Positions 58,030 through 63,943 of a stretch of 64,000 nucleotides of DNA are shown here, in pieces. Position 1 is the first letter of the stretch; each line of letters begins with the position of its first letter. A program made the translations under genes and the position numbers. A model generated the notes under the pieces. The model saw only the letters and a program-made list of their open reading frames with translations. It made no database searches and was not told where the DNA came from. Location of the stretch: positions 1 to 64,000 of IMG/VR virus record IMGVR_UViG_2859725622_000004; one strand, 5' to 3'. The DNA is from a virus (Duplodnaviria > Caudoviricetes).

Positions 58030-58953
58030 TTATTCCTCAGCCCACGGATAGCCTCGTTCAGCCATTTTTTTTCGTTCCTCTTTGAGCTTTTCGATAATTG
58101 AAGGGGCTAACGGCTTACCTTTGTCGTCAACCAGCGTTTCAACCTGGCTGCAATGGCAGTTGATTGAGTTACCGTTAATGGAGTACCAGTCGCGAACCTC
58201 TTCGACGGTGTACAGATGTGAATGCCGTGCTGCGTGTGTCCTGCGTGTGGTAGGCAATAATGCAGAGATATGAACGAGCATTGTTTTCAGTCCAAGGCTC
58301 TGCGCATCTTCTGCCTCTTCCCATCTCGCCCGCCTCAATGCGCCTGGTATTTCTGTTTGCGCTATGCGATTAGCTCGCCGCGTTTCAATACCGACTTGGT
58401 CACGCAGGTTACGTCTAACCTCTCTCGGATTAAGTCCTCGCCCTATTCCATCGGTGAGAACTCTAGCCATTTGCTGCTTGGTTTTAGCTGTAAACCCCTT
58501 CATCTCTTCAAATACTCGCGCATAAGTCAGAGCCATGCGGCGCTGGTACGGAGTACTTAATAGAATGGCTTGCAGAGATTCGCGACTGGCGGCGTATGTT
58601 GCTGATTGCTGGCTAAGGTTGACGTATGCCTGATTTGTACCTCGTATCGCAGCAGGCTCGACATAATCCTCAGAAAACCACAGATAGTTTTGTCCGCCTT
58701 CCAATAGAACAGCATCGACGAGAACACTCGCATCGTTCAGCACGATGTTGAGTAGTAGCGGGTCGAGTTGGTATTCATATCTGCGATTGACTGCGGGTGA
58801 GGCGGGGAATCTATCAAGTGCGTCGGTGTATGCTTTCTGAACCTTCTTTAGCCGCCTGGCAAAATCAGCCATCGCCTTTCGCTCTAAAGAACTTAACCCG
58901 GTCGGGTCACTCTTATTCTTCGGTATTATCGCCGGTTTCGGTTTCGCGGCCAT
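58030..58953 (-). CDS. Minor head protein (SPP1 gp7 / Mu F-like)
   Basis: RANRIAQTE...RRTHAARH...NCHCS. Confidence 0.9.
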   Translation of the reverse strand: MAAKPKPAIIPKNKSDPTGLSSLERKAMADFARRLKKVQKAYTDALDRFPASPAVNRRYEYQLDPLLLNIVLNDASVLVDAVLLEGGQNYLWFSEDYVEPAAIRGTNQAYVNLSQQSATYAASRESLQAILLSTPYQRRMALTYARVFEEMKGFTAKTKQQMARVLTDGIGRGLNPREVRRNLRDQVGIETRRANRIAQTEIPGALRRARWEEAEDAQSLGLKTMLVHISALLPTTRRTHAARHSHLYTVEEVRDWYSINGNSINCHCSQVETLVDDKGKPLAPSIIEKLKEERKKMAERGYPWAEE

Positions 58954-60283
58954 CGTCAGTCTCTCCTAATGGTTCTATACCATCCGGCTCGTAACCTGCC
59001 GCAACGCGAATCTCTTCACCACTAAATACCGCCTCGCCGGTTGACATTGATGTGCTATTGATTTGAGACATCTTCACAGCGCTGTCCAATTTCTCAGATG
59101 CTGTTTGCTCGTTCAGTTCATCCCAGATAACCGTTTTCATTGAAACTGAATCAATGATGCCAAGGTCGATTAACTTGTTGCAGAAATCCTCGATATCAAA
59201 TGACAGAGCGCGATTACGGCGGGATTGGCATCGCGTGTTGAAGTAACGATTATCTTCTGTGCTGGCCCGCTCACCTGTTTGTGACATAGCCAAGATTCGC
59301 GCAGGGATATCAACAGCAGATGAAGCAGTTTGTAGATTGACGTTATAGGTCGGTTCAGGGTCAGCAACTGCGGTAACAAGCGGCGTTACACTCGCACCCT
59401 GCGTCGTCAAAAGAACATCATTCCCGCGATTAATCTCAGTGGCCGCTTCGTTAAACTTATCCTGAAGCTCATCAACACTTACCCCATACAGGGAAGCGAG
59501 ATTGCTAAAGTTAATTTCTTTTTCGAAGTTGAGATTAAGCTGCCTTGCTGCGTTCTTGAGGAATGACTCACCAGACCCACCCTCAACCTTTTCTAAGCTA
59601 ACAAAGGCGTTATATGCAGGCTCAAGGAATCCGATAGCGTCACGACTGTAATCACCCAAGATGAAAACGCGGTCAGGGTGAATCCTCACACGCCGACTTG
59701 CCCCGTTAGGGAGCATTTCGGTGTATTGCCACATCTTCGGATTGCCGTATGAGGTGGAATTAAGGTCAGTATCCCACTCAGCCGGAACTAATGAACCTGC
59801 CCATACAGGCGTTAGCTTCTCTAACCCGCGTCCTTTGACTACTGGCGTATTCCAGGCACCACTATCGCGGACATGAAGCAAAATCCCCGAATAGCGCCCA
59901 ACCAAGCGACGTATGTCAGCATCAGCGAATTGTTGCCACAGGCGATTATTGAATACGGCTTTAAGGCTTTTTTCCCACGGAGTTACAGCGCCTGATTCGT
60001 CCTTTTTCTCACCCTCTATAATTTCTGGATTACTCAGCCAGCATGTACCAACAAGCTTGTTTACCGCGCCATGGGCGATACCACCACGGCGGTAGAGCTT
60101 GTACAGATCATCAAAGGTTAATTCCTCTTTGAATCCGTACTCACACCATGCGTTAGCACGTTTGGCGTCAAGGCCCATACCAGTATTGAGTAGTCCCATA
60201 CGAGCGCGAGCCATGGCTGAATCACTGATTGCGCTGTTAATCTGCAATGCATGGTTAACAGCAAGCTGTAATTTGTCTGTCAT
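58913..60283 (-). CDS. Portal protein (DUF1073 family)
   Basis: Position after terL; RIHPDRV, DIPARIL..Q.GE.ASTED. Confidence 0.85.
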   Translation of the reverse strand: MTDKLQLAVNHALQINSAISDSAMARARMGLLNTGMGLDAKRANAWCEYGFKEELTFDDLYKLYRRGGIAHGAVNKLVGTCWLSNPEIIEGEKKDESGAVTPWEKSLKAVFNNRLWQQFADADIRRLVGRYSGILLHVRDSGAWNTPVVKGRGLEKLTPVWAGSLVPAEWDTDLNSTSYGNPKMWQYTEMLPNGASRRVRIHPDRVFILGDYSRDAIGFLEPAYNAFVSLEKVEGGSGESFLKNAARQLNLNFEKEINFSNLASLYGVSVDELQDKFNEAATEINRGNDVLLTTQGASVTPLVTAVADPEPTYNVNLQTASSAVDIPARILAMSQTGERASTEDNRYFNTRCQSRRNRALSFDIEDFCNKLIDLGIIDSVSMKTVIWDELNEQTASEKLDSAVKMSQINSTSMSTGEAVFSGEEIRVAAGYEPDGIEPLGETDDGRETETGDNTEE

Positions 60284-60311
60284 GCTGTTTCCATTCGTTG
60301 GTTGTTAAGCA

Positions 60312-60336
60312 ATAAAAAGGCCGCCTGAGCGACCTT
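60312..60336 (-). terminator. Intrinsic terminator after the tRNA-like RNA
   Basis: AAGGTCGC-TCAG-GCGGCCTT then TTTATT. Confidence 0.75.
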
Positions 60337-60343
60337 ATTGGAT

Positions 60344-60472
60344 TGGTGAGGTGACTGGACTCGAACCAGCACTCAGGATCGGCAAAAGCATCATGCCTAA
60401 CCTGCTGGCGTTAACCAGTTGATGCATTACTCTACCCATCTAACCCGCAAGCGGGAATTGAGTTACACCTCA
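60344..60472 (-). ncRNA. tRNA-like RNA with expanded D-loop and non-canonical anticodon region
   Basis: TGAGGTG/CACCTCA acceptor-like stem, CCA end, ACTC/GAGT D stem, GCTGG-TTCGAGT-CCAGT T arm. Confidence 0.65.
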
Positions 60473-60480
60473 TTTTCAGT

Positions 60481-61800
60481 TTATCTACCCATTAGTCGCT
60501 TCGGAATCATCATGCCCATAGACTGCGGCTTATGTTTTATATATCCATCTAAACCGTAACGAACACCATCCCAGCAGTGGTTGTTCTTGTCCTCGATCAC
60601 TGGCAACACTTCGCCAGTAGTCCGGTCTGTTTTGTACGAATACAGCCTGGCCTCTTTTGCTGTCTCTTTGCAGCGAGGATGGATGATGATCTGCTTAAAC
60701 CCACGAAGGCAGGTTATTCCGTCCTCAACGCTACCGGCCCACTTCTGAGCAGCGGCAATGTTGAAGCCTTGCGTCTTGATGTGGCTGATAGTCTCAGGCC
60801 GTGAGTTATCAGCCTTGATGGGCCACTTGCGAGCCTGTGGTATACCAGGGAACTTCGCCTCGTCAGTGACCTTCCACTCTTCAAGCTGCTTAGGTTTGGC
60901 ACCATCAACGCCAGCGTAGAATTTCCACATATCATCCAGCTCGACGCCGTGACCGTAAGCCTCGTATTCGATGTACAGATTGCTGTTGAGGATAAACATG
61001 CGGATAAGCGTGCTAGGGTCTTTCGCAAAGCCAAAGTCAGCACCGAACAGTAGTCGTTCTGATTGCTCCCACAGGTCATCAGCAAAGCTTTGGACGACGT
61101 ACTTGTTCGCCAGCACTTGCTTGTCAGAGTTTTCAAGGTAAGCGCCTTCCCATATCCACGCGTAATCGGCATAGTCCAGGGTAGCTAAATCTTCGAGACG
61201 CTCCTCTTCAAGAACGTCAGGGAACCACGGATTGTCGCTGTAGTTCATTTCGACAATCATTGAATTTTTTGGCGGAGTTTTCCGGTAGCGTTTATCGGTC
61301 GCGCTGCCGTCTTTCTCTGGGTTCCACGTTACCCAGATTTCAGAATTATTCTCACGTACGGTGGGGCGGAGCTTTTTCCAGGCGATGTCCGATACAGACT
61401 CAGCTTCATCTACCCAGGCTACCAATATACGGGCCTTGGATTTAATGCTGTCTAGGTTATGGCGCAGGCCGCAGAACACGTAACTCACGCACCTGTTTTT
61501 GGTACGAATGTATTTCTCGCCAATGTCGAAGTAATCATCCAGCCATGGAACGGAGCGGATTGCCTGCTTCACCTCTTCCATAGAGGACTCTTCGAGCGAG
61601 TTCATATACTCGCGAGCGCAGAGAATAACGCCGCTTATGCCTGACTCGGCTGCCTGGTAAGCCTTAATCGCAGTCATCAACGCAAATGTGCGTGTCTTCG
61701 CGGAACCACGCCCGCCGTATGCGCCACGGTAACGAACGCCTTCAGTGGCGAATACAGGTACTAACTTAGCGGGGATTTGGAGATCAACTTGGCTTTCCAT
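60481..61800 (-). CDS. Terminase large subunit (PBSX/SPP1-type)
   Basis: GGRGSAKT Walker A, WVDEAE, DFGF, NHCWDGVRY. Confidence 0.95.
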   Translation of the reverse strand: MESQVDLQIPAKLVPVFATEGVRYRGAYGGRGSAKTRTFALMTAIKAYQAAESGISGVILCAREYMNSLEESSMEEVKQAIRSVPWLDDYFDIGEKYIRTKNRCVSYVFCGLRHNLDSIKSKARILVAWVDEAESVSDIAWKKLRPTVRENNSEIWVTWNPEKDGSATDKRYRKTPPKNSMIVEMNYSDNPWFPDVLEEERLEDLATLDYADYAWIWEGAYLENSDKQVLANKYVVQSFADDLWEQSERLLFGADFGFAKDPSTLIRMFILNSNLYIEYEAYGHGVELDDMWKFYAGVDGAKPKQLEEWKVTDEAKFPGIPQARKWPIKADNSRPETISHIKTQGFNIAAAQKWAGSVEDGITCLRGFKQIIIHPRCKETAKEARLYSYKTDRTTGEVLPVIEDKNNHCWDGVRYGLDGYIKHKPQSMGMMIPKRLMGR

Positions 61801-62284: not shown

Positions 62285-62920
62285 TCAGGCCAGTTTCAGC
62301 AGGCATGTTCCACACGCCCTGGCAACGTTAAGATGGGCTACCTCAGCAGGTTTGTTTGCCGCATCAATCATTTCCTGTACTTCAATGCTCGCACCATATC
62401 TGCGAACTACACCGACAAACTCTTCAACGTCATGTCCGCGCAGTTTCAATGTCGGTTGCCCTTCTTTGTTGAACTTGGGTGCTCCGAATTCGTCCTTTGC
62501 GTGACTGATGTGATAAAGCTCATGTTCTATCAGCGCACAGAACTGGAGGTCAGAACATTGAGCGCAATAATCAGCAGCCAGGGTAATGATGAATGTCGGT
62601 ACATCGCCGAACCATTCGTACATCTGCTGTTCCATTCGGGCTTTTTGCCAGCCGCCAGCTCTCATTGCTACCTGCTCAGCTTGACCAAGAACAGTGCGAC
62701 CCTGCTTTTCAAACGCAGATGATGCCCACATGATTTTTATGTCAGCGTCAATTAAGTGTCCGTGGTCGGGATTGTGTAGCTCGCCTTCGTCACTGAGTAT
62801 TTGGCTGTTAACCCACTCAAGAACTTCAGTGGCGGGGACTAATTCAATGTGCGGTCTGAACTCATTGACGAATGACAATGGCGGATATGGCCGCTTCATT
62901 TGTGTGTCTGAATTAGCCAT
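62285..62920 (-). CDS. Putative phage metallopeptidase
   Basis: ALIEHELYH...HDVEEF motif. Confidence 0.8.
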   Translation of the reverse strand: MANSDTQMKRPYPPLSFVNEFRPHIELVPATEVLEWVNSQILSDEGELHNPDHGHLIDADIKIMWASSAFEKQGRTVLGQAEQVAMRAGGWQKARMEQQMYEWFGDVPTFIITLAADYCAQCSDLQFCALIEHELYHISHAKDEFGAPKFNKEGQPTLKLRGHDVEEFVGVVRRYGASIEVQEMIDAANKPAEVAHLNVARACGTCLLKLA

Positions 62921-63103
62921 AACAGAATATTCCACTGGTTGGTAAAGTCTCCCGCTCAGTAATGGTGAGACCGACATGATTGCAAACATCTATAAGATTC
63001 TGTCAAAGGCACTTAATCAGCACATTTTGCAGAGTTTTATAAATTGAGAGCCGTTGTGAAAGTGGCTCTCAATTTTAGGTTTCTAATTTCACGCGGATTT
63101 TGC

Positions 63104-63274
63104 TTATTTCTTTGCCTGATTCTGATCTTCCGTCGCTAGTAGAACATCGAGAAGGACCTCAGCCTTCTCAACATTCGATAGGCCAATAGATATCCGGCCA
63201 CAATTCAAATACTGGAAACCATCCTTCAAATAACGGCAGATAGTTTCCAGTTGCTGTTTCTCGCCGTTGGTCAT
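63104..63274 (-). CDS. Small hypothetical protein, 56 aa
   Basis: ATG overlaps antirepressor stop; MTNGEKQQLETICRYL... Confidence 0.5.
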   Translation of the reverse strand: MTNGEKQQLETICRYLKDGFQYLNCGRISIGLSNVEKAEVLLDVLLATEDQNQAKK

Positions 63275-63846
63275 GTTCGGGTTACCTTCCCTTTCCCTGT
63301 TTCAGCCAGCACGTAACAAATCAGCTCATTGGCTTCCTGAACCAGTGATTTGATCTTTGATACATGCCCCGCTTTCACACTCTTCCACTCATTAAGTCCG
63401 GTGCCGAACATGCTAGCAATGCGCTTATCATGCTTCATATCCGCACAAGCCTGGTTAAGTTCTTCCATGATGCTTTGTTTGCGGGGATTGATTGCTACGC
63501 CTTTAGTCCAGTAGTCATGCAGAACAGCAAAACATTCCTCTTGATACTGGATCAGCTTGTCGCGAATGTCGGCACGTACTTTTGCGGGGTTAATGCTGAA
63601 TAACCAGCCGTTAAGTTTGCGAATGGGGATACAGAGCATTTCCTGAACTCCGCCACGCGAAGGCATGGTCATATGACCACACCCATACTTTCCCTTTTGA
63701 GCTATTAATTTTCTATGCTGTGATTTCCAGTCCAGCCCGATAGCCTCAATAACAGGCTTCATTGCCACATACTCAACACCGCCTTCACGGACAGTCGTCA
63801 GTTTGTCTCCATTAAATTCAATTTCTGTAATGACTGGATATTCCAT
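63271..63846 (-). CDS. Phage antirepressor, P22 Ant N-terminal domain
   Basis: YVAMKPVIEAIGLDWKSQ...LCIPIRKLNGWLFSINPAKV...YQEECF.VLHDYW. Confidence 0.9.
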   Translation of the reverse strand: MEYPVITEIEFNGDKLTTVREGGVEYVAMKPVIEAIGLDWKSQHRKLIAQKGKYGCGHMTMPSRGGVQEMLCIPIRKLNGWLFSINPAKVRADIRDKLIQYQEECFAVLHDYWTKGVAINPRKQSIMEELNQACADMKHDKRIASMFGTGLNEWKSVKAGHVSKIKSLVQEANELICYVLAETGKGKVTRT

Positions 63847-63857
63847 TGTGTATTCCT

Positions 63858-63943
63858 TTTGGAAATGACCCTCAGTGCCCAGAAATGACAGCCCATAGAA
63901 GCTCACCAGCTATACCGGCATTCCTCTGAGGCTCATTTCCAAA
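63858..63943 (-). promoter_or_regulatory. Long hairpin in the antirepressor 5' leader
   Basis: 18-bp inverted repeat with one mismatch abutting the RBS. Confidence 0.6.

Follow-up and report, generated by a model that had tools for sequence, protein, structure and literature searches.

The gap between the terminase large subunit gene (terL) and the portal gene of a lambda-like prophage raised the question of what kind of RNA is encoded there, whether it is a transfer RNA (tRNA), and how a terminator can stand in the middle of a late operon. The DNA analysed (the window) was a stretch of 64,000 nucleotides (nt), the first 64 kilobases (kb) of the 87-kb provirus record IMGVR_UViG_2859725622_000004 in IMG/VR, and the element under study was found in a single copy in this record. 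The RNA gene between the terminase and portal genes is real and conserved. It was identified at 60344-60472 on the minus strand as a 129-nt tRNA-derived RNA without an anticodon arm (type A), with a score of 156.4 bits against the covariance model R1 and with support from covariation. We consider it somewhat probable that the element is an accessory gene (moron) whose product is a stable small RNA that does not decode and that arose from a phage tRNA.

Anatomy of the tRNA-shaped RNA

A first-pass annotation of the window had described a 129-nt tRNA-like RNA 8 nt past the terL stop with a terminator after it, and each segment stood when checked against the sequence. The terL stop codon TAA was located at 60483-60481 and, after an 8-nt spacer, the RNA starts with U1 at 60472 and reaches A72 at 60347 and C73 at 60346, followed by CA; all segments given here are on the minus strand, sense with respect to the surrounding genes. 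The acceptor 5' strand UGAGGUG (60466-60472) pairs with the 3' strand CACCUCA (60353-60347), after which CCA is encoded at 60346-60344 in the window copy, and of these 7 pairs 4-5 were compensated family-wide. U8 and A9 (60465-60464) were followed by a D arm (60429-60463) with a nearly invariant stem ACUC/GAGU and a 27-nt loop. This loop holds an inserted hairpin CCCGCUUGCGGG (CCCG-CUUG-CGGG; 60444-60455), absent from type B relatives, and, 3' of the hairpin, G18G19 within UUAGAUGGGUA. The T arm GCUGG-UUCGAGU-CCAGU (60354-60370) had covariation at 3 of 5 pairs and a T-loop entropy of 0.017, with the junction AGU (60371-60373) 5' of it. All of the nucleotides of the tRNA L-shape were present, namely U8-A14, A15 with U48, G18G19, A21 and G53-C61 with A58.

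The anticodon arm was replaced by a branched domain made of a variable hairpin X and a long arm Y, and most members also carried the D-loop hairpin. The domain is preceded by a conserved linker AAUGCAUCAA (60419-60428), whose GCAUCA is complementary to UGAUGC of the arm Y loop. Hairpin X (CUGG-UUAACG-CCAG; 60405-60418) takes the position of the anticodon arm and all 4 of its pairs covary; its loop and length varied widely, with type A loops of 4-6 nt and a stem of approximately 10 base pairs (bp) at locus L062. Arm Y (60374-60404; 31 nt) consists of an outer stem CAGG/CCUG with 3 covarying pairs, a 3×3 internal loop, an inner stem GGCA/UGCC and a 9-nt terminal loop, in the strand order CAGG, UUA, GGCA, UGAUGCUUU, UGCC, GAU, CCUG; the internal loop was variable and the terminal loop UGAUGCUUU conserved. 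Downstream of the RNA, the AU-rich 7-nt trailer AUCCAAU and then an intrinsic terminator occupied 60307-60343, and the terminator scan placed the stem-loop, which is accompanied by a U tract, at 60336-60317. A hairpin and U tract were also present 3' of relatives, and an AUUCAA-like trailer was found in several of them.

The tRNA features previously listed (acceptor-like stem, encoded CCA, U8-A9, D stem, D-loop GG and canonical T arm) were all found on the minus strand, as were the reported departures from tRNA, a D-loop hairpin insert and CTGG-TTAACG-CCAG with an arm of ~31 nt instead of an anticodon arm. The suggestion that the acceptor and discriminator were off by one was not borne out and came from taking the CCA of the window copy as the 3' end. 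In the family the geometry was a canonical 7-bp acceptor with U1-A72 in 60 of 63 distinct sequences and a variable position 73 (C or A), and CCA was not conserved; Cronobacter phage ES2 has CACAUA instead. A single-sequence minimum-free-energy fold, in which the D loop paired with the variable region, was discarded because the substitutions of ES2 break its pairs.

Relatives, covariation and descent from tRNA

ARAGORN (default settings, introns allowed, and transfer-messenger RNA (tmRNA) search) found no tRNA or tmRNA in the 64-kb window. Rfam produced zero matches in the window at the gathering threshold, and a search of 60200-60600 at an expected value (E) ≤10 returned just noise. These checks, which the first-pass annotation had proposed, left the window copy as neither an ordinary tRNA nor a known Rfam family. 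The same element was found at the same junction in phage ES2 with 83% identity and with compensatory changes already visible, and none of the other phage records, 50,697 in all, gave a match. When IMG/VR was scanned for sequence patterns, the three different anchors recovered 34, 39 and 83 loci. The model R1 was built from a MAFFT alignment of 29 sequences and confirmed 93 loci at E ≤1e-12, in addition to 12 loci of type B and 26 metagenome loci; the approximately 130 relatives found with it came from IMG/VR, metagenome contigs and six Enterobacterales genomes. A search of one genome per species (185,579 species) returned six true members, all Enterobacterales, belonging to Silvania, Enterobacter, Yersinia, Atlantibacter and Izhakiella. 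In a sample of 151 Enterobacterales genomes, the one positive was the genome of the query itself, and the element was present at an unannotated locus in 4 of 5,426 complete E. coli genomes, among which a type B copy had no BLAST match. Overall, this is a genuine family, though a sparse one, carried by phages and limited to Enterobacterales within the reach of these searches. A full-text literature search of incomplete coverage for an anticodon-less tRNA-like prophage RNA retrieved no description of it. Damaged copies were also observed; at L109:4904-5031 (minus strand) the first ~40 nt were swapped for unrelated sequence, and at L032:1918-2059 (minus strand) the inner Y stem was broken by a change of GGCA to GAAA.

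Covariation was assessed in three alignments. The MAFFT alignment A2 (25 distinct sequences) had 99.4% of its cells paired and 8 pairs changed on both sides, alignment A3 (93 sequences aligned to R1, 63 distinct) had 99.1% and 14, and alignment A4 (mixed type A and type B, 37 distinct) had 98.0% and 17. With the partners slid, the paired cells amounted to 27-40%, 27-41% and 30-43%, respectively, and for each alignment 0 of 500 shuffles reached the observed paired percentage and covariation score. The compensatory pairs in A4 were distributed over the acceptor (5), hairpin X (4), the outer Y stem (3) and the T stem (3). Alignments to a model are biased towards that model; the independent MAFFT alignment agreed. 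The D stem and D-loop hairpin hardly varied and, therefore, covariation neither supports nor contradicts them. The inserted arms did show covariation across the collected homologues, so that the objection raised beforehand, that the inserts might lack it, did not hold. The T loop, D stem, U8/A9, 5' D loop and AGU junction were near-invariant, with an entropy of 0.02-0.12 (0.02-0.08 when only the T loop, D stem and junction are counted), and the linker and Y loop were also conserved (entropy ~0.2). Variation was tolerated in the covarying stems, in the loop of hairpin X, in the internal loop of arm Y and, most of all, in the discriminator and trailer (entropy 1.13).

The complementarity between the linker GCAUCA and the Y-loop UGAUGC cannot nest with the well-supported arm Y. 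The corresponding helix had 98-99% of its cells paired; its pair 51:88 was G-C in 26, G.U in 7 and A-U in 3 of 37 sequences, and two other pairs changed to wobble only. These data support a candidate pseudoknot, in which the pairing would be a contact or an alternative conformer.

The origin of the family was indicated by type B, a rarer subtype without the D-loop hairpin and with an ordinary 8-nt D loop AAUCGGUA, to which L082, L089, L201-L204, L207-L214 and others belong. The L082 copy scored 37.2 bits with the Rfam tRNA model (threshold 29), with ~57 nt aligned as an insertion that replaces the 17-nt anticodon arm. Because a type B copy passes the tRNA threshold with its anticodon arm replaced in this way, the family is a tRNA derivative, and the D-loop hairpin of type A, the window copy included, hides it from the tRNA model. 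The pass of L082 shows descent and not that the window copy is a member of the tRNA family. The core also resembled that of E. coli tRNA-Asn, with U1-A72, a match at 7 of 8 D-loop positions and 16 of 17 T-arm positions identical to the window; these are generic tRNA features and the likeness is therefore just a lead on ancestry.

The earlier conclusion that the RNA is not a decoding tRNA was upheld by the missing ARAGORN and Rfam matches, the inconsistent anticodons and the variable discriminator and CCA. An acceptor, D arm and T arm with tertiary-core nucleotides (U1-A72, U8, A9, A14, GG, UUCGAGU) were all present. The window copy showed no 5-bp anticodon stem closed by a 7-nt loop with U33 and a purine at position 37, no anticodon was consistent, and a conserved discriminator with a usable 3' CCA was not found in the family, CCA being present in the window and absent in ES2 and many others. 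Since neither the discriminator (C or A) nor CCA was conserved, a defined amino-acid identity is unlikely. ARAGORN with a lowered threshold or with introns allowed reported a different "anticodon" for each homologue, and for that reason these calls were regarded as artefacts. The sequence thus describes an RNA that is predicted to be tRNA-shaped and non-decoding. Two further classes were rejected. For tmRNA, ARAGORN -m found none in 30 family members and pair 3:70 was A-U, U-A or C-G and never G.U; for a tRNA containing a group I intron, no Rfam intron matched and the insert was just ~40-60 nt.

Positions in phage late operons

The element was found in at least three types of late-operon site. 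Copies after terL were found at 13 loci including the window, the majority of loci were in the leader between Q and the lysis genes (for example in E. coli GB089, with Q on one side and the holin/lysozyme genes on the other), and the copies at L014, L082 and L089 lay in the head cluster ahead of a scaffold-like gene. Some leader copies adjoined real tRNAs, with anticodon CAU (Met/Ile) at L015 and UAU (Ile) at L039. The contig IMGVR_UViG_3300011678_000033 carried both a type A leader copy (L019) and a type B copy (L213), the latter upstream of a gene whose start matches that of the scaffold-like gene of L082; the presence of both subtypes on one phage contig suggests that they may not be redundant.

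The terL-associated site was examined further in the 80 IMG/VR loci whose TerL was closest (84-96% identity), of which 2 carried the element and 78 did not. This makes it unlikely that the element is a necessary part of this head module. The terL-portal gap could be measured by a motif search in 27 loci; 1 had a gap of 18 nt, 9 had a small Cys-rich open reading frame (ORF) of 132 nt, 4 had inserts of other kinds, and in 11 the start of the portal gene could not be recognised. An 18-nt junction was seen in Klebsiella phage ST13-OXA48phi12.5, a small Cys-rich ORF of ~40 amino acids in SPN3UB and nine IMG/VR relatives, and larger inserts of 300-570 nt at other junctions. The junction intervals (60284-60480 in the window, L037:1736-1867 and L038:1621-1638) mark an insertion hot spot, and the element is a dispensable cargo module at this known type of hot spot.

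In the window, terL (60481-61800, minus strand) encodes 439 amino acids with Pfam hits to Terminase_3 (1.5e-24) and Terminase_3C (5.4e-11), and the next late gene 3' of the RNA is the portal gene (58913-60283, minus strand; 456 amino acids; Phage_portal_3, 6.4e-15). A small terminase-like DUF2280 gene was located upstream and a Mu F-like head-morphogenesis gene downstream. On the same strand, upstream of the element, were Rz, endolysin, holin, a Q-like antiterminator and then Nin-region genes. The late leader of this prophage (L119:1777-2060, corresponding to record positions 65777-66060, minus strand) had a promoter-like TTGCAT-17-TATATT just after Q, between Q and holin, which was read by eye and was not flagged by the scan. 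It was followed by two tandem intrinsic terminators found by the terminator scan in the Q-holin interval. No copy of the tRNA-like RNA was found in this leader. The element stands ~5.4 kb downstream of the putative late promoter, and a consensus scan detected no sigma-70-like site of its own upstream of it in the window or at three type B loci. As a separate observation, a P22 antirepressor-like gene (P22_AR_N and ORF11CD3) and a putative phage metallopeptidase gene, both cargo-like and inside the late operon, were found at 62285-63906 (minus strand), in the interval that separates the small terminase gene from the lysis cassette.

Late leaders of lambdoid phages reportedly hold tRNA genes, such as ileZ-argN-argO of Stx phages, and family copies were likewise found in late leaders, some beside real tRNAs. 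The PR'-tR' leader RNAs (lambda 6S, StxS) also share with most relatives the position between Q and the lysis genes, before a terminator. The window copy does not have this position and differs from a leader RNA in being located after terL, ~5.4 kb further on and beyond the two terminators of the leader. The late leader promoter is described as always active and StxS as a regulatory small RNA (PMC7547250); StxS as described there is not tRNA-shaped, whereas the family RNA is. Most late-leader copies also had a conserved 15-nt leader CAGUGCUCUNUCCGU directly 5' of the RNA and a conserved extension of ~70 nt 3' of it, with apparently two small hairpins and then a terminator (for example L003:7120-7210 and L004:1850-1935, minus strand). 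The extension could represent a further structured element or belong to a longer precursor.

Proposed action of the RNA and competing explanations

The accessory, non-decoding RNA that we favour kept the tRNA parts that are read by processing and modification enzymes, i.e., the 7-bp acceptor, U8-A14, an A15-U48-type junction, G18G19 and the T loop. The RNA would be transcribed with the late genes by read-through, via a Q-modified, terminator-resistant RNA polymerase; a terminator between terL and the portal gene is tolerable because the element lies within the Q-dependent late operon. Excision would proceed as for a tRNA, with an RNase P cut at U1, an RNase E cut in the AU-rich trailer and then exonuclease trimming. 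The tRNA core would serve as a processing and stability chassis, and the linker/Y-loop domain and D-loop insert would be the working surface, acting in trans on a protein or RNA late in infection. Leader copies would lie inside the short leader transcript, would make up much of it, and this RNA would probably also be made in lysogens. An action in trans is preferred over a cleavage signal in cis because the extra domains were kept by selection and no constant gene pair is served.

Several points weigh against this proposal. The mean column identity of the first alignment was 87%, a family only moderately divergent, and the loop invariance could partly reflect recent horizontal spread and not selection. 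The candidate pseudoknot is supported by one covarying pair and wobble-compatible changes. Its 6-bp helix and the inner Y stem leave a crossing of 3 nt that looks sterically tight, and the helix may form only partly for this reason. None of the listed public sequencing runs is recorded as RNA, and the four that were examined were contigs with related DNA only, so that the transcript ends, abundance and processing of the RNA are all inferred. Classical morons, moreover, do not usually have a terminator and lack a promoter.

A special case of action in trans is a decoy, in which the RNA would titrate or mislead a host or competitor factor with specificity for the acceptor end, the T arm or the elbow of tRNAs and would thereby spare the tRNA pool late in infection. 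Toxins that modify or trim the 3' end and tRNA-binding defence sensors are examples of possible targets. In favour of a decoy, phage-borne tRNAs are established as a possible counter to defences that cleave tRNA, conservation was highest in the nucleotides of the tRNA core and the elbow, the RNA is placed with late genes, from which late expression may be presumed, and the element is accessory and horizontally moving as counter-defence genes are. However, acceptor-end mimicry is weakened by the non-conserved 3' end and discriminator, a stoichiometric sponge would do little against an enzyme, and no linked defence or partner gene was seen. A decoy of this kind, which the first-pass annotation had offered among its options, is doubtful. 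Its strict form, directed at anticodon nucleases, is unlikely because there is no anticodon loop for the best-known of these enzymes to cut. A related version, also improbable, is an anticodon-less tRNA look-alike that is released by the host tRNA-processing enzymes and diverts a factor recognising the tRNA body or 3' end (toxin, sensor or modification enzyme); in such a counter-defence or host-manipulation role the linker/Y-loop pseudoknot and D-loop hairpin would give specificity.

An effect in cis only, with the element as a site of RNase P or RNase E cleavage that subdivides the long late transcript and determines the relative stability of the flanking messenger RNA (mRNA), would agree with its constant intergenic and sense placement in late operons, its AU-rich trailer and the lack of an own promoter in the scan. 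RNase P needs just an acceptor/T-arm minihelix and the elbow. Such a site would not require the invariant linker, Y loop and D-loop insert, nor the covarying arms X and Y, and no single gene pair is served by a module that occurs in the 5' leader, after terL and before a scaffold gene. Nearly all close relatives of the head module were also without it. We therefore regard a purely cis-acting site as unlikely. A dedicated separator of terL and portal mRNA, as had been suggested, is made unlikely by the position of most relatives in the Q-to-lysis leader and of others before scaffold genes.

The rarity and patchiness of the element, with one hit in the 50,697 phage records, four in the 5,426 E. 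coli genomes and one, the query's own genome, in the sample of 151 Enterobacterales, and the damaged copies L109 and L032 would fit a tRNA pseudogene in decay or a selfish hitch-hiker devoid of RNA function. This is very unlikely, as compensatory changes keep all of the helices, including the non-tRNA arms, 98-99% paired, the tertiary-core nucleotides were conserved, and two subtypes are maintained and were found together in one phage contig.

It is also very improbable, and slightly more so, that the gene is an intron-containing tRNA from which the removal of ~20-57 nt would give a working tRNA-Ser(GCU) or tRNA-Asn(GUU). With introns allowed, ARAGORN did call some type B copies tRNA-Ser(GCU) or tRNA-Asn(GUU), joining of U54 to U86 would give the canonical-looking loop UUGCUAA in most copies, and the core resembles E. 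coli tRNA-Asn. However, three different splice registers and two different sources of the "anticodon" were needed and the spliced stem of the best register had 3 pairs only, with 27:43 being A.G in 60 of 63 sequences and 28:42 being U.U, C.U, U.C or C.C in 59 of 63. One reading would put the 5' strand of the covarying outer Y stem into the "anticodon loop" and destroy the helix. In addition, the discriminator was not conserved and no Rfam group I intron signal was found, and we know of no bacterial pathway for excising such small tRNA inserts. Finally, a packaging RNA (pRNA), another of the earlier suggestions, that would cooperate with the terminase and portal like that of phi29 can be practically discarded given the distribution of the family across sites, as nothing else than the position of the window copy between terL and portal speaks for it, most members are in the Q-to-lysis leader or elsewhere, 78 of 80 closest TerL loci had no element and no Rfam family matched, phi29-type pRNA included if it is in Rfam.

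The proposed accessory RNA was also compared with known tRNA-like RNAs. Canonical tRNA (RF00005) shares the 7-bp acceptor, U8/A9, 4-bp D stem, G18G19 and UUCGAGU T arm, and differs in that the family has 40-60 extra nt as arms X and Y and, in most members, a D-loop hairpin. The T4 species 1 and 2 RNAs (rnaC and rnaD) are likewise stable RNAs of ~120-140 nt annotated beside phage tRNA genes, and rnaC ends in a T-arm-like hairpin GGGUUCGAAUCCC. They differ in internal architecture, and T4 is lytic and keeps its tRNA genes in a dedicated cluster, unlike the late operon of a temperate phage. With R1, rnaC reached 18.6 bits and did not surpass ordinary T4 tRNAs, and homology was rejected on this basis; the two RNAs, which to our knowledge have had no function assigned for decades, are the nearest natural analogues and are not homologous. 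Ponchon and Dardel are said to have engineered "tRNA scaffolds" for RNA expression in E. coli. There, as proposed for the family, a payload replaces the anticodon arm and the tRNA core gives processing and stability, though the scaffold is a laboratory construct and comparable with the natural RNA by analogy only.

In YrlA the ends lie in the Ro-binding stem and its "acceptor" is closed, whereas the family's own 5' and 3' ends form the acceptor. Bacterial Y RNAs including YrlA are described in the source cited as non-coding RNAs that mimic the D-arm/T-arm elbow of tRNA (PMC4201824). No Y RNA was matched with Rfam, and the annotated neighbours were head, lysis and Nin-region genes, Rsr not having been specifically searched. 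The tRNA-like domain of tmRNA, described as an RNase P substrate (PMC3985003), shares an acceptor and T arm without an anticodon; the family RNA has no G3.U70 and no conserved tag reading frame and is only ~129 nt long. The prophage small RNAs svsR and Pas were judged unrelated from their papers. The tRNA-like sequence at E. coli K-12 xtpA/yahM was not matched by R1 at E ≤10 with default filters. It was observed at L064:5325-5410 as a different, shorter element with a 5-bp/7-nt arm.

A side observation was made in two contigs of Lachnospiraceae metagenome-assembled genomes (L049:6598-7189 and L060:1441-2031), which held arrays of four adjacent tRNA genes of ~115-140 nt. In the three tRNAs that were inspected, an identical insert of ~35-40 nt interrupted the anticodon region, AAAGGAGCUUUGAYAAAAGCUCAUGCAGCAAUUUU. 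ARAGORN saw no tRNA there with default settings and four per locus with introns allowed, and the inserts look like shared mini-introns.

The family belongs with the phage tRNA-like small RNAs, and phage tRNAs matter in the arms race with tRNA-cutting defences. It offers a compact, covariation-supported case of a tRNA converted to another use, and it is missed entirely by standard annotation. Its carriers are temperate enterobacterial phages that are open to lambda-type genetics. For annotation, the lesson is that some "empty" intergenic gaps of phage late operons contain RNA genes.

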